64,000 nt of DNA from an uncultured Victivallales bacterium (GCA_964402115.1 CAYOBW010000006.1:3303-67302), one strand, 5' to 3'. Numbered from the stretch's first letter, positions 14,047 to 20,741 are shown. Numbers and translations are program-made. The notes: generated by a model not told the origin, from the sequence alone.

Positions 14047-15510
14047 ATGGCACTGAAGGTTGACCTGCTGAAACTGAAGGAATCTGGCACCGTTGCGGAA
14101 GTGCGTCAGGACGTGGTCAGCGTAACCGGTTTACAGAACTGCATGAACGGCCAATTGGTTCGGCTGGGCAAGTCCTCTCAGGGTGTGATCGTCGGCTTCG
14201 ATCCCGGCTACGTGCTGGTTCTGCAGGTCAAACATGGCGAGCCCATCAAGCCTGGCGACCGGGTGGAAACCACGATCGACCAATTCAAGGTTCCTGTCGG
14301 CGAGCGTTTCATCGGGCGTCGGCTCAACGCGCTGGCCGAACCGTTCGACGGGTTGGGACCCATTCGTGAAAGCGCGGAGTATCCGATTTTCGGGCAGGCG
14401 CCCTCCGTGTTGGAGCGGGTGCCGCTGGCGGACGTCCTGCAGACAGGCACGAAGATCGTGGACATGACGCTGCCGATCGGCAAAGGGCAGCGCATGCTGA
14501 TCATCGGTGACCGGATGACAGGCAAGACCACGCTGGGCATCGATGCGATCATCAACCAGCGCGGCAAGAACGTCATCTGCATCTACTGTTGCATCGGGAA
14601 GTCGGAAGTCTCGATCAGTCGCGTGGCGGAGCTGTTCGATCGGGAGCACGTCTGGGACTACGGCATGATCGTGGCTGCCACGGCCTCGGACCCTATGGGG
14701 CAGCAGTATCTGTGCCCGTACATCGCCACCAGCCTGGGCGAGTACTTCATGTACGACAAACATGCGGATGTGCTGGTGGTGTTCGACGACTTCACCAAGC
14801 ACGCCTGGGCGTATCGGCAGATTTCGCTGCTGTTGGAGCGGGCGCCCGGACGGGACGCCTATCCCGGTGACATTTTCTACATCCACTCGCAGCTCGTCGA
14901 GCGGGCCGGGAAGCTGCGCCCGGAGCGGGGCGGCGGGTCGATGACGCATATGCCGATCGTCGAAACGCTGCAGGGCGACGTAGCCGGTTACATCCCCTCG
15001 AACATCATTTCGATGACGGATGGGCAGATCTACTTCAACGCCTCCCTTTTTGGCGAAGGGTTCAAGCCCGCCATCGATATGGGGCTGTCCGTTTCCCGTA
15101 TCGGCAGCAAGGTCCAGTGGCCCGCCATGAAGGGGCCGACGGGGATGCTGAAGCTGGACTTCGTGCGCTACAAGGAACTGGAGCGGTTGACGCGTATCAA
15201 GGCGGGCGTTTCGACGGAGGTGGAAGCGCGCCTGCGCAAAGGCAAAGTTTTGGAGGAAGTGCTCAAGCAGGACCAGAACTTGCCCGTTCCGATGGAAGAT
15301 CAGGTCATCAGCCTTTTCGCACTGCAGCACGGCAACCTGGGCGAGTGCGAACCGGTGGACGTGCGCCCCCGCCTGGATCGCATTCTCAAGTTCATCAGGT
15401 CCAAAGCGCCGGAGTTGGTCCAGGAGTTAGTGGACAGCCGAACCATGACGGACAAGATCAAGGAGGGCCTGCATGAGCAGCTCGCCCGGTTCGCCAATAC
15501 CGCTGTTTAA
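14047..15510 (+). CDS. atpA: F-type ATPase alpha-subunit-like protein, paralog 1
   Basis: Walker A GDRMTGKT, PGRDAYPGDIFYIHSQLVERA, ITDGQI-type MTDGQIYF, and LSVSRIG with the conserved Arg. It has IGKS where catalytic beta has GER, so it is non-catalytic alpha type. Start placed at MALKV (the ORF opens at 14017). Confidence 0.9.
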   Translation: MALKVDLLKLKESGTVAEVRQDVVSVTGLQNCMNGQLVRLGKSSQGVIVGFDPGYVLVLQVKHGEPIKPGDRVETTIDQFKVPVGERFIGRRLNALAEPFDGLGPIRESAEYPIFGQAPSVLERVPLADVLQTGTKIVDMTLPIGKGQRMLIIGDRMTGKTTLGIDAIINQRGKNVICIYCCIGKSEVSISRVAELFDREHVWDYGMIVAATASDPMGQQYLCPYIATSLGEYFMYDKHADVLVVFDDFTKHAWAYRQISLLLERAPGRDAYPGDIFYIHSQLVERAGKLRPERGGGSMTHMPIVETLQGDVAGYIPSNIISMTDGQIYFNASLFGEGFKPAIDMGLSVSRIGSKVQWPAMKGPTGMLKLDFVRYKELERLTRIKAGVSTEVEARLRKGKVLEEVLKQDQNLPVPMEDQVISLFALQHGNLGECEPVDVRPRLDRILKFIRSKAPELVQELVDSRTMTDKIKEGLHEQLARFANTAV

Positions 15511-16978
15511 GATCAAGTACGAAGAACGCGGCACGATCAAGGACATCAAGGAGATCATCGTTCGGATCGACGGGTTGCCCGGATGTCTGAACGGTGAGAT
15601 TGTGGACTTGGGCGATGGGGTTCGCGGGATCGTGATGGGATTCACGGCCACCGACGTGCTGGCGCTCGTGCTGGGCGACCCAGCGCGTCTGCGGATGGGG
15701 CGCGGGGTCAAGGGGTCTGGCGAGCCGTTTCAGATTCCGGTCGGCCATGCTTTCCTCGGGCGCATGGTGTCGGCCATGGGTGAGCCGTGCGATCAGGGCC
15801 GCCCCATCGAGCCCTCCGCGCATCTGCCCGTCTTTCGCGATTCCCCGCCGATCACGGCGCGCGCGCCGCTGGAGTCATTCCTGTGCTCCGGCACGAAAGT
15901 GATCGACATGCTCATACCGCTGGCCAAGGGGCAGCGGGAACTCATCCTGGGAGACAGGATTACCGGCAAGACCGCGATTGCGCTGGACGCCGTTCTCAGC
16001 CAGAAGGGGCGGCAGTGCATCTGCATCTACTGCTGCATCGGGAAATCCATTTCCAGCGTTGGCAAGCTCATGTCCGTCCTGCACAGTAACGGGGCGCTGG
16101 AGTACTCCGTGGTCATGATTGCGGCCGACAATGCGCCCGTCGGCGAGCAGTACCTGGCCCCTTTCGCGGCTGCTTCCATGGGGGAGTTCTTCGCCAGCAA
16201 AGGGCGCGATGTGTTGATCGTGTTCGATGATCTTACGAAACATGCCTGGGCCTACCGGCAGCTGTCGTTGCTGCTTGAGCGTCCGCCGGGGCGGGAAGCC
16301 TACCCGGGCGACATCTTTTACGTGCAGACACAGCTCATGGAGCGGGCTGGCCGTTTCGGGGACCGCCACGGCGGGGGCTCGATCTCCTACCTTGCCATCG
16401 CCGAGACCCTGCAGGGGGATCTGACCGGCTATATCCCGTCGAATCTGGCGTCCATGTGCGATGGACAGATCGTGCTGAGCAGTTCCATCTTCTCCGAGGG
16501 GTTTCGTCCGGCGATTGACATCGGCCTCTCCCTGTCGATCGTGGGCGGCAAGGCGCAGCCCCCACTGCTGCGCGCGCTCACGGGTAACATGCGGGCCGAC
16601 TTCGCCCGTTACGAAGAGGTTCAGAATCTGCGCAAGTTGTCGTCCGGGTTGTCGGGGGAGGCTGAACGCGTTATCCGGCACGGCGAGGCCATCCAGACGG
16701 TTCTGCAGCAGGGGCAGAATCGGCCAGTGTCTCTTGCGGAAGAAGTGGTCTTGCTGTATGCTCTCGAAACGGGCGTGATTGTCGGGCTTTCGCCGCATAT
16801 GCGCAAGCGCTTCTGCGATGACATTTTCGCCTTTGTGTTGCGCAAGAACGGTGAACTGGCGCTGCAGTTGGAGAGGGCGACGGCTTTAACCGACGACCAG
16901 CGCCGGGTGCTTGACGAGCTGATGAGAAAGTGCCTGTCAGGGCTGGGATCTGAGATGCAAGGCGCGGAGCACGCTTGA
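15473..16978 (+). CDS. F-type ATPase alpha-subunit-like protein, paralog 2 (Arg-finger position is Ile)
   Basis: Walker A GDRITGKT and PGREAYPGDIFYVQTQLMERA, collinear with paralog 1. It reads LSLSIVGG where alpha subunits have SVSRVG. It overlaps the end of paralog 1 by 38 nt. Confidence 0.9.
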   Translation: MSSSPGSPIPLFKIKYEERGTIKDIKEIIVRIDGLPGCLNGEIVDLGDGVRGIVMGFTATDVLALVLGDPARLRMGRGVKGSGEPFQIPVGHAFLGRMVSAMGEPCDQGRPIEPSAHLPVFRDSPPITARAPLESFLCSGTKVIDMLIPLAKGQRELILGDRITGKTAIALDAVLSQKGRQCICIYCCIGKSISSVGKLMSVLHSNGALEYSVVMIAADNAPVGEQYLAPFAAASMGEFFASKGRDVLIVFDDLTKHAWAYRQLSLLLERPPGREAYPGDIFYVQTQLMERAGRFGDRHGGGSISYLAIAETLQGDLTGYIPSNLASMCDGQIVLSSSIFSEGFRPAIDIGLSLSIVGGKAQPPLLRALTGNMRADFARYEEVQNLRKLSSGLSGEAERVIRHGEAIQTVLQQGQNRPVSLAEEVVLLYALETGVIVGLSPHMRKRFCDDIFAFVLRKNGELALQLERATALTDDQRRVLDELMRKCLSGLGSEMQGAEHA

Positions 16979-19310: not shown

Positions 19311-19352
19311 GCCGGGATCGTGGACGGCGCAGTGTCAGGACGGAGGATGAGC

Positions 19353-20741
19353 ATGAGCGAAGTAACCCAGTCCAAGGTGCGGCGGGGAGTCGTGGTGGCC
19401 GTTCAGGGGCCGGTCGTGGATGTCAAGTTCCTGGCGGTCAACGATGTTCCCGATATCCACGAGTTGGTGGTGACGCGCACATTCGACAAACGTGACGTGA
19501 AGCTGCTTGTTGCCGAGCATCTTGAGGGCAACATCGTGCGCTGCGTGGCGCTGGCTTCCACGCTCAACCTGCAGCGCAACGCCGCGGCCACGGCGACTGG
19601 AAGCACCCTGACGGTGCCCGTCGGAGACGCTTTGTTTGGCCGGATCATCAATGTCATGGGCGAACCGATTGACGGGAAAGGACCGATCGAAACGGCGGAG
19701 CGTTGGCCGATACATCGCGATCTCTCGCGCCTGGCCTTCAGCGTGGACGACATGGCCCGGTCCAAGACGGAAACCGTTGAAACCGGCATCAAGATCGTGG
19801 ACCTGCTGTTCCCCGTCGTGCGCGGCAGCAAGACGGGAATCATTGGTGGCGCCGGCTGCGGCAAGACGGTGCTCATTTCGGAACTCATCCACAACATCGT
19901 GGAGGAACACCAGGGCGCATGCGTATTCACGGGCATTGGCGAGCGCATCCGGGAGGGCAACGAGCTTTACTACGAATTCGAAGCTGTCGGCATCCTGGAC
20001 AAGGTCATGATGGCCTTTGGGCAGATGGATGAACCCCCCGGGGCGCGCTTCAACGTGATCCTGACGGGGATTACGCTTGCCGAGTACCTGCAGTCCACCG
20101 GAAGGGAAGTCCTGCTCTTCATGGACAATGTCTTCCGGTTCGTACAGGCGGGCGCCGAAATCTCGACCCTGCTGGGGCGTACGCCTTCCGAAACCGGCTA
20201 CCAGCCCACCCTGAGTTCCGAGGTCGGCGACGTGCATGAGCGCATCAAGGGTGCGGTGTCCGCGTTCGAAGCTGTGTACGTGCCAGCCGACGACTTGACC
20301 GACCAGGCCGTGGTTGCCATTTTCAGTTACCTAGACGCCGTCATGGTGCTCTCGCGTGAACGCACGCAACTGGGGCTGTATCCCGGCATTGACGTACTGG
20401 CTTCATCCTGCTCGAACCTGGACGCCGGCGTTGTGGGGCAGCGTCACTTTGACCTGTCCCAGGAGCTCCTCAGGATCTTCACGAAGTACGATGAATTGCG
20501 TCGCATCGTGGCCGTTATCGGCGTTGACGAACTCTCGAAGGCGGATCGAATCCTGTACGAGCGGGCGCGCAAGCTTGAGAACTTCATGACTCAACCCATG
20601 TTCGTCGCCGCAGCGTTCACCGGTCGCAAGGGTCAGTTCGTGCCCCTGAAGGACACGTTGGACGACGTGGAGCGGATTATCGACGGCAAGATGGACAGCC
20701 GTTTGGAGACGGAGTTCTACATGATCGGCAAGATCGAGTGA
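19353..20741 (+). CDS. atpD: F-type ATPase beta subunit (catalytic)
   Basis: Walker A GGAGCGKT, catalytic [24 protein letters not shown], and DELSKAD in place of DELSEED. Start placed at MSEVTQ, 6 nt after GGAGG; ATG 19347 and GTG 19320 are alternatives. Confidence 0.9.

Follow-up and report, generated by a model that had tools for sequence, protein, structure and literature searches.

What is an F-type ATPase for when its operon has no subunit a? The question is raised by seven back-to-back genes of an uncultured Victivallales bacterium, on the + strand at positions 14047-20741 of a 64,000-nucleotide (nt) stretch of DNA (GCA_964402115.1, CAYOBW010000006.1:3303-67302), which is referred to in its entirety as the window. 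The open reading frames (ORFs) encode alpha1, alpha2, epsilon, c, b/delta, gamma and beta, in that order, and are followed on the same strand by genes of a machine that resembles a type II secretion system (T2SS) or type IV pilus (T4P). It is rather likely that the seven genes specify an accessory, non-bioenergetic F-type ATPase, a built-in module of this machine, which would deploy or operate a giant surface adhesin. Judged from its subunits and their setting, the complex is probably not the cell's ATP synthase and instead a motor that burns ATP and was recruited to an apparatus of the cell surface.

A natural F-type ATPase with a rotor, a c-ring, a stator and an asymmetric alpha, and with no ion channel, is a test case for a rotary ATPase freed from chemiosmosis. 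It is also one for the recruitment of rotary ATPases into other machines, for which the origin of the type III secretion system (T3SS) ATPase and the Mycoplasma gliding motor offer comparisons. The operon ties together a giant adhesin, a new family of membrane anchors (p440) and a type IV filament machine, and may underlie attachment, gliding or prey handling. Its carriers are Omnitrophota, which have been proposed to be predators or parasites, and uncultured bacteria of the Planctomycetes-Verrucomicrobia-Chlamydiae (PVC) group.

An ATPase operon without subunit a

All seven ORFs lie where an original prediction, made from the sequence alone, had placed them, and the overlaps it described are real. 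By their coordinates, alpha1 (14047-15510, alternative start 14017) and alpha2 (15473-16978) share 38 nt, and the alpha2 stop and the TTG start of epsilon (16975-17223, 82 residues) share a TTGA junction that can be read directly. The ATG at 14047 is the likelier start of alpha1 because a Shine-Dalgarno-like run, GGGGGGAG, stands 6 nt upstream of it; the overlap of the two alpha genes suggests that their expression is coupled. The c subunit (17240-17491) has 71-83 residues by start choice, with ATG 17255 or TTG 17276 the likelier starts, and is followed by the b/delta fusion (17589-18335, 248 residues), gamma (18417-19310) and beta (19320-20741). Pfam and NCBIfam agree with every subunit identity first proposed, the b/delta fusion included, with only a weak Pfam match for c.

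The missing component is subunit a. None was found in the window by Pfam or by a hydropathy scan of all stop-to-stop frames, whose polytopic ORFs were a symporter at 174-1661 and RnfE/RnfD at 60390-62684, both on the - strand, the rest being antisense artefacts. A profile hidden Markov model (HMM) of subunit a, run against the six-frame translation of the window, likewise returned nothing, with best chance-level matches anywhere at E about 0.9. The same HMM found no match in any of the 72 related, syntenic loci described below, with flanks of up to 10 kb per side where the contig allows, and matched all eight canonical loci at E 1e-84 to 1e-130, where the gene lies directly upstream of c. A hidden polytopic stand-in for subunit a within the modules was also considered and rejected: the ORFs with multiple transmembrane (TM) segments were all antisense artefacts, none of them on the + strand. 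With no subunit a there would be no ion path, and the complex is therefore predicted only to burn ATP, unable to make it or to pump ions.

A catalytic head with two unequal alphas

The F1 head departs from the usual pattern in one of its alphas. Both alphas match ATP-synt_ab in Pfam at 1e-66 to 1e-68, and alpha1 has an intact P-loop (GDRMTGKT) and an intact arginine finger (SVSRIG). In alpha2 the P-loop is intact (GDRITGKT), and the finger position, alphaArg373 of the bovine enzyme and alphaArg376 in E. coli numbering, reads SLSIVG, with Ile in place of Arg. The position is Ile or Val (SLS[IV]VGG) in 15 of 15 two-alpha loci and Ile in all 120 of the closest database orthologues, whose P-loops are intact, while alpha1 and the single alphas of related loci keep the arginine finger (SVSRIG) in every case.

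An arginine finger stabilises the transition state; without it, hydrolysis is orders of magnitude slower. Because alpha2 has none, the catalytic sites that adjoin it should be slow or dead and the hexamer asymmetric. Alpha2 would thus bind nucleotide without being able to supply the finger, and one or two of the catalytic sites should be affected. The subunit also deviates at a handful of alpha positions that are otherwise at least 90% conserved. Its closest solved structures are bacterial F1 alphas, and among NCBIfam models it scores slightly higher on the N-type alpha than on atpA.

The pilus-linked alphas form a group of their own. In a neighbour-joining (NJ) distance tree with a small outgroup of eight canonical alphas, and without N-type or Mycoplasma references, all of them stand apart from the outgroup, including alpha1 and alpha2 of the window and the alpha of the LiM genome (L063), and the alpha2s of PVC bacteria make up a separate deep branch. 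In all pilus-linked alphas the canonical AIGQKxS reads IGK, IGR or IGG (CIGKSEVS in alpha1 of the window), and the conserved Gln is gone. One Omnitrophota locus (L018, JAUYEC010000160.1, 2856-5840) carries a tandem pair of alphas where the canonical alpha lies, the second of which lacks the arginine finger (SVSIIGS) and falls outside the PVC alpha2 clade; as far as a distance tree can tell, this hints that it may be an independent duplication with convergent loss of the arginine.

Beta is catalytically intact. The P-loop, GERxREG, Walker B and DELSxxD (DELSKAD in the window) are present in every locus, in line with the original prediction for the window. The only change that runs through the clade is at the adenine-stacking Tyr of PADDYTDPA, which is Leu (PADDLTDxA) in nearly all of its betas (about 20340-20370 in the window); canonical loci in the same set keep the Tyr.

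These scores and motifs bear on one alternative, an ordinary ATP synthase or ion-pumping ATPase with its atpB at another place in the genome. On the NCBIfam equivalog models, alpha1 exceeds the cutoff for atpA (TIGR00962, 504.3 bits against 484.45) and beta that for atpD (TIGR01039, 532.6 bits against 462.85), and beta has the catalytic motifs expected of a canonical F1Fo enzyme. Databases name these proteins as F0F1 ATP synthase subunits, the c subunit of the window keeps its helix-2 Glu, and the Rnf genes of the window mean that a chemiosmotic ATPase of some kind is required in this cell. The alpha without an arginine finger is difficult to reconcile with such an enzyme, as is the absence of subunit a from all 72 syntenic loci, which span several phyla.

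The rotor and peripheral stalk

The rotor subunits are present and altered. Gamma is full length but divergent (PF00231 at 4.9e-23, profile positions 2-271 of 285), with 57.7 bits on TIGR01146 against a cutoff of 194, and has 510 database homologues, mostly in Kiritimatiellia, Lentisphaerae or Verrucomicrobia metagenome-assembled genomes (MAGs). A look-up of the window gamma in assemblies returned short Logan contigs only. Epsilon consists of the N-terminal beta-sandwich alone (PF02823 at 7e-15; 54.2 bits against an equivalog cutoff of 67). The original prediction had noted that it lacks the inhibitory helices, and in all 60 aligned loci epsilon is short, without the inhibitory C-terminal helical domain.

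The c subunit scores 21.8 bits on PF00137, under the cutoff of 24, and has both the GRNPS polar loop and the helix-2 Glu (FAEAIAV). No protein of the block is more conserved: its mean pairwise identity within the PVC clade is 0.82, compared with 0.74 for beta, 0.66 for alpha1 and 0.37 for p440. The values for c, beta and alpha1 indicate that the subunits are under purifying selection. The R-N-P loop of c contacts gamma and epsilon, and the helix-2 carboxylate is invariant in ion-translocating c-rings. In the related loci the loop is conserved throughout, whereas the Glu has become Q, M, A, S or F in 13 of 63, on several branches and in modules that are otherwise intact and keep the loop. The carboxylate, and with it ion transport, therefore appears to be dispensable, which fits the absence of subunit a and is not expected of an ordinary synthase.

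The same loss counts against a second alternative. The complex could be an ion-coupled rotary motor in which a non-homologous stator channel, for example GspF/PilC or the TM helices of p440 and b/delta, replaces subunit a, so that the membrane potential drives the c-ring or is driven by it. Such a motor would account for the strong conservation of c (0.82) and for the Glu that it keeps in 79% of loci; the TM helix of p440 shows uncommon conservation, including an Arg that is invariant at the cytoplasmic end, and a GspF homologue is reported to form an ion channel (PMC10790770). The Glu has nevertheless been lost repeatedly and independently from modules that are otherwise intact, p440 is absent from the loci of the V. 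archaeovorus group, and contact between the c-ring and GspF, p440 or b/delta is purely hypothetical. An ion-coupled motor of this kind is very unlikely.

The peripheral stalk is a single polypeptide. It has an N-terminal TM helix, a long coiled coil with b-like matches and the C-terminal half of delta/OSCP, with residues 174-234 aligned to positions 103-164 of the 172-position Pfam OSCP profile; the N-terminal domain of delta is absent. The best NCBIfam match is the b subunit of N-ATPases (46.8 bits against a cutoff of 224.7), the best PDB match, a weak one, is the mycobacterial b-delta fusion 7jg5_d, and HMM searches detect b/delta in 68 of 73 loci. Both c and b fall far under the NCBIfam equivalog cutoffs. 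That gamma, epsilon, c and b all score below them, and that delta lacks its N-terminal domain, adds to the case against an ordinary synthase.

A conserved block with secretion and pilus genes

The ATPase genes are embedded in a same-strand block with intergenic gaps of 0-100 nt. Upstream lie a giant LamG/Ig adhesin-like protein (1724-12541, 3605 residues) and p440, an uncharacterised membrane-anchored protein of 440 residues (12640-13962). Downstream, 52 nt after the beta stop, begins a hexameric secretion ATPase of the GspE/PilB type, whose N-terminal domain is MshEN (20794-22440; PF00437 at 5.7e-132, PF05157) and whose score, under both the GspE and the PilB equivalog cutoffs, singles out neither subtype, followed by a GspF/PilC-type polytopic platform protein (22480-23697, two PF00482 domains).

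This block of giant protein, p440, ATPase, GspE and GspF recurs in 72 of the 80 loci closest to the window (L001-L080), the other eight (L073-L080) being ordinary atp operons. The labels of the 72 are PVC (Lentisphaerae, Kiritimatiellae), Omnitrophota, Planctomycetes and Nitrospirota. The exact order of the window, (giant)-p440-alpha1-alpha2-epsilon-c-b/delta-gamma-beta-GspE-GspF(-peptidase MA), is found in L001-L012, L043 and L059, from MAGs labelled Lentisphaerae, Kiritimatiellae, Victivallales, Verrucomicrobiota or PVC. The remainder of L013-L072 have the order (giant)-p440-epsilon-c-b/delta-alpha-gamma-beta-GspE-GspF and are mostly Omnitrophota, including the complete Ca. Velamenicoccus archaeovorus LiM genome (L063), with further MAGs labelled Planctomycetes, Nitrospirota and others. 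GspE lies 3' of beta in all 49 testable loci and is followed by GspF in 44 of 44, and p440 is upstream of the ATPase in 37 of 41; an HMM of p440 found none in the V. archaeovorus group loci or in L046. Weak homologues of the giant protein lie upstream of the ATPase in most related loci, and the pseudopilins, GspK and a GspL-like gene are syntenic downstream as far as the flanks reach.

Two separate ATPase-GspE-GspF clusters (L060 and L071) occur in a single MAG (CAYQXW01), an unusual situation for a housekeeping synthase. Such duplication, the position of the module between p440 and GspE, and the separation of this clade from respiratory ATPases in the Omnitrophota literature (PMC10066038) complete the evidence on an ordinary enzyme with its atpB elsewhere, and make it highly improbable. 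The original prediction had favoured an accessory, hydrolysis-driven module derived from F1Fo, and it had proposed looking for the same order and neighbourhood in PVC relatives, where both are indeed conserved. Its preference is strengthened by the related loci: no subunit a (72/72), loss of the carboxylate (13/63), and constant GspE (49/49) and GspF (44/44). What it did not contain is the secretion/pilus and giant-adhesin context, the missing finger of alpha2, the partner p440 and the earlier report from Omnitrophota (PMC10066038).

The downstream genes supply T2SS or type IVa pilus (T4aP) parts: besides GspE/PilB and GspF/PilC, there are N-methylation (pseudo)pilins, GspK and GspL/M or PilM/N. 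In the window these are pseudopilin 1 (24792-25442) and pseudopilin 2 (25463-26053), both with Pfam N_methyl, a GspK-like protein (26060-27067, T2SSK_1st), a PilM/PilN (GspL-like) fusion (27027-28508, PilM_2/PilN) and a GspM-like protein with a weak T2SSM_b match (28505-29074), all on the + strand. No recognisable secretin or prepilin peptidase is among the genes of the window identified by Pfam and NCBIfam; a downstream protein of 713 residues has no Pfam or PDB sequence match, hence no secretin is identified there.

Several minor features accompany GspE and GspF. On the motif model for MshE-type cyclic di-GMP binding (NF053729), GspE of the window scores 36.6 bits, just under the cutoff of 38, and the apparatus may be regulated by cyclic di-GMP. 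Immediately 5' of GspE, many Omnitrophota loci contain an additional small ORF that is similar to the N-terminus of GspE. A peptidase MA-like protein (PF13485) recurs in the block, usually after GspF, as in the window (23698-24546, + strand, 1.4e-15); in some loci labelled Omnitrophota or Planctomycetes (L037, L054, L066) it stands between p440 and epsilon.

The giant protein and its putative anchor

The giant protein has the features of a surface adhesin. It begins with a signal-like sequence, continues with LamG/ConA-like and Ig-like domains and ends in a helical region; Pfam recognises Laminin_G_3 three times (1.6e-77), Kre9_KNH and Big_7. Residues about 3010-3370 (about 10750-11830 in the window) are degenerate helical repeats of about 10-22 residues with 'LTN' and 'DW.D' motifs. 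Tandem Repeats Finder detected no repeat in the gene at DNA level, and the 'LTN' repeats exist at protein level only.

The neighbouring p440 has no match in Pfam or NCBIfam. Its AlphaFold2 model (mean pLDDT 87.8) has, after a signal peptide, a duplicated unit of beta-sandwich and three-helix bundle, a C-terminal TM helix at about 402-428 and a short cytoplasmic tail, and gives no significant match to PDB folds (best E 0.058). The TM helix is highly conserved, with W406, I409, L416, F423, R426 and W427 invariant. A profile search of 1.84 billion representatives yields a p440 family of 945 representatives at 50% identity.

The link between the two proteins comes from fusions. Some members of the p440 family are long proteins with a C-terminal p440 module, and in one of them, P0299 (2029 residues), residues 246-1405 align to residues 1812-3008 of the giant protein (E 7e-57) while the last 480 residues form a complete p440 module with its TM helix, all in a single uninterrupted ORF. 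P0297 is a fusion of the same type. The repeat region of the giant protein is the part that is homologous to the segment before the p440 module in the fusion proteins. Given these fusions, the giant adhesin and p440 can be argued to act as one unit, in which p440 would be the inner-membrane anchor of the adhesin.

Relationship to known rotary ATPases

Compared with canonical F1Fo (atpIBEFHAGDC), the window has homologous alpha, beta, gamma, epsilon, c and b/delta subunits and intact beta chemistry. It differs in having no subunit a, two alphas, b fused to the C-terminal half of delta, an epsilon without its C-terminal domain, a c carboxylate that is not invariant in the family, another gene order and a place in a secretion operon. 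Membership of the canonical F1Fo class was rejected on the absence of subunit a (in 64 kb and in 72 loci) and of a full delta, on the one alpha without a finger, and on the scores of gamma, epsilon, c and b below their cutoffs.

The N-ATPases are also accessory F-type operons with no separate delta and a long b subunit; their genes are reportedly, in an account by Dibrova and colleagues from 2010, ordered atpDCQRBEFAG. Unlike the window, they keep subunit a, have AtpQ and AtpR, and pump ions. Neither the small membrane ORFs expected of AtpQ and AtpR nor subunit a were seen in the module. On the N-type models (cutoffs of TIGR03305/03321/03323/03324), the alphas reach 464 and 483 against 750.5, beta 489 against 752, b 46.8 against 224.7 and gamma 26.8 against 282, and membership of this class was rejected too.

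A different precedent is set by secretion ATPases. FliH/SctL has a b-like N-terminus and a delta-like C-terminus, and FliI and FliJ resemble beta and gamma; the flagellar and T3SS complex FliI-FliJ-FliH (SctN/O/L) is therefore a rotary-ATPase derivative in a secretion machine, whose FliH is like the b/delta fusion. By analogy, the module could be a non-rotary secretion or assembly ATPase that unfolds, loads or chaperones the giant adhesin or the pilins, with the c-ring as a passive membrane anchor. The fused stalk and the secretion context would suit this role, an alpha2 with a defective arginine finger would make smooth rotary catalysis at three sites difficult, and the c carboxylate is dispensable. 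T3SS ATPase complexes, however, are homohexamers without alpha, epsilon or a c-ring, and their secretion partner is not the type IV filament system found here; the window keeps gamma, epsilon, the polar loop of c and the peripheral stalk, the full set of rotor and stator parts that rotation requires and that T3SS ATPases have shed. FliI/SctN models score about 150-180 bits on the window, about 178 for its alphas and beta, against cutoffs of about 600. The giant protein moreover has a Sec-type signal, and the filament already has GspE as its ATPase. A non-rotary role is unlikely on this evidence.

The gliding motor of Mycoplasma mobile works with giant surface 'leg' proteins, which parallel the giant adhesin of the window. 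It is one of the Mycoplasma type 2/3 F1-like ATPases (PMC3369863; Toyonaga et al., bioRxiv 10.1101/2024.06.11.597861), which resemble the module in being F1-derived, in existing beside or instead of the housekeeping enzyme and in serving a non-bioenergetic surface function. Their cluster comprises seven genes, for alpha-, beta-, gamma- and epsilon-like subunits and three unique proteins (3-TM, 12-TM), with no c or b (Beven et al. 2012, PMC3369863). The window, in contrast, keeps c and b/delta and has no polytopic (12-TM) partner, and Mycoplasmas have no such type IV filament genes beside the cluster. Membership of types 2/3 was rejected, with 378.5 against a cutoff of 600 on NF045863, 282.8 against 520 on NF045936, 406.8 against 850 on NF045858 and 382.6 against 570 on NF045934.

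The closest relative in the literature is the 'non-respiratory' F-type ATPase reported beside type-4a pilus genes in many Omnitrophota, including V. archaeovorus LiM (Seymour et al. 2023, Nat Microbiol, PMC10066038). That study distinguished 'respiratory' from 'symbiotic' F-type alpha clades. In 57 of 66 contigs the symbiotic one had pilus genes no further than 10 kb away; the authors suggested that the enzyme serves attachment or motility and likened it to Mycoplasma type 2/3 ATPases. The window shares with it an F-type ATPase directly beside GspE/PilB-GspF/PilC, and its alphas group with those of Omnitrophota, including L063. Both marks of the 'symbiotic' locus are thus found here: an ATPase no more than 10 kb from a T4P/T2SS-like cluster, and an alpha in the non-respiratory clade of the NJ tree. 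The differences are that the window belongs to a PVC lineage (Kiritimatiellia/Lentisphaerae-like) instead of Omnitrophota, that its genes are rearranged relative to the Omnitrophota order epsilon-c-b/delta-alpha-gamma-beta, and that it has the extra alpha without an arginine finger. The paper contains no subunit analysis and is silent on subunit a, on the kept c and b/delta, on the carboxylate and on p440; its equation with Mycoplasma types 2/3 is unsupported by the NCBIfam scores of the window.

Other reports touch on parts of the system. T2SS-like loci adjoin giant genes in Omnitrophota in West-Roberts et al. (bioRxiv 10.1101/2023.11.21.568195), where the ATPase is unmentioned. A 2026 preprint (bioRxiv 10.64898/2026.06.07.730766) records alpha and beta in 125 of 176 genomes and gamma in 30 of 176, read as 'incomplete F1Fo', and V/A-type ATPases in 70-99% of Gorgyraeia outside the order Pluralincolimonadales. 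The divergence of gamma (57.7 against 194) probably explains the first pattern. For Omnitrophota, published work favours a second, distinct ATPase for energy conservation. Orthologues of alpha2 and gamma (P0022, P0034, P0391, P0470 and others) carry the names 'F0F1 ATP synthase subunit alpha/gamma' or 'F-type H+-transporting ATPase'; through such names, metabolic reconstructions of these MAGs may wrongly include an ATP synthase that the organism lacks, and puzzling reports of 'incomplete F1Fo' can arise.

The kind of system, a pilus-linked non-respiratory F-type ATPase, is therefore already in the literature as a genomic observation. Literature searches for it in Kiritimatiellota/Lentisphaerae, or for an F-type ATPase without subunit a, gave nothing beyond Seymour et al. 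2023, and PMC6388578 and PMC12583861 hold nothing relevant to it. Within the literature searched, several aspects appear to be unreported: its presence in PVC bacteria, the rearranged two-alpha order with one alpha lacking the finger, the systematic absence of subunit a with c and b/delta kept and the carboxylate relaxed, and the p440 family with its fusion to giant adhesins.

A proposed mechanism

If the module is an accessory motor of the surface machine, its parts would most likely work together as follows. Beta, alpha1 and alpha2 would form the F1 head, gamma, the short epsilon and the c-ring the rotor, and b/delta the peripheral stalk. ATP hydrolysis would turn or step gamma, epsilon and the c-ring against the alpha/beta head and b/delta, without ion flow. 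The resulting movement would be transmitted across the inner membrane to p440 with its attached giant adhesin, and the GspE/F/L/M platform would be the scaffold.

A more specific and decidedly tentative version, which we consider improbable in its details, is an ATP-driven transmembrane rotary shaft of a new kind. The c-ring would serve as a rotor bearing only, and the conserved C-terminal TM helix of p440 would, speculatively, sit in or on the ring, a placement proposed by analogy because the single-pass proteins Voa1, ATP6AP1 and ATP6AP2 sit inside V-ATPase c-rings. Rotation of F1 would be passed as torque to p440 and the attached or fused giant adhesin, the b/delta stalk would be braced on the GspF/L/M platform, and alpha2 without its arginine finger would impose a defined pause or a limited stroke. 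A shaft of this kind, if true, would mean that a rotary ATPase was recruited independently to a nanomachine for secretion, motility or predation, widespread in Omnitrophota and PVC bacteria, in parallel with the origin of the T3SS ATPase and of the Mycoplasma gliding motor.

Several points weigh against an accessory motor coupled to a surface adhesin. The Glu of c is kept in 50 of 63 loci (79%), the window included, and may have an ion-related or partner-related role. Without subunit a, the TM helix of b/delta has no obvious anchor. The HMM of subunit a was built from only eight canonical sequences, though the TM scans and Pfam agree with it. The 80 loci were picked by their closeness to alpha2, with one genome per species, and are a biased sample, and the taxon labels of the MAGs are the submitters' own. 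Assembly of the products into one complex, the ratio of alpha1 to alpha2 in it, its rotation, the target of its torque and its biological role (adhesion, gliding, secretion or predation) are what we infer from sequence.

Genomic context of the block

Beyond the GspM-like gene, the block may extend further on the + strand. A MORN-repeat protein, the 713-residue protein, a 324-residue protein also without a family match and a PEP-CTERM protein (29108-34313) are possible members; the flanks of related loci end before reaching them. A scan of 12-25 kb for promoters and terminators gave results at chance level overall and no intergenic terminator, which is compatible with co-transcription without being proof of it. 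A horizontal-transfer island was considered and rejected, the G+C content of the cluster (0.59-0.62) lying inside the window's own range.

Genes outside the block give some indication of the cell's energy metabolism. RnfE (60390-61001), an RnfG-like flavin mononucleotide (FMN)-binding protein (61009-61638) and RnfD (61635-62684) are encoded on the - strand, as is a Na+/alanine symporter (174-1661). This combination suggests an anaerobe whose economy is ion-motive, probably based on Na+. Such a cell should therefore need a genuine ion-translocating ATPase encoded elsewhere; with Rnf in the window, this would have to be a chemiosmotic enzyme that the ATPase module described here presumably cannot be.

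The window also holds genes unrelated to the ATPase: a tetratricopeptide repeat (TPR) protein of 1053 residues at 50446-53607, and two adjacent squalene-hopene-cyclase-like repeat proteins at 56436-58073 and 58693-60381.

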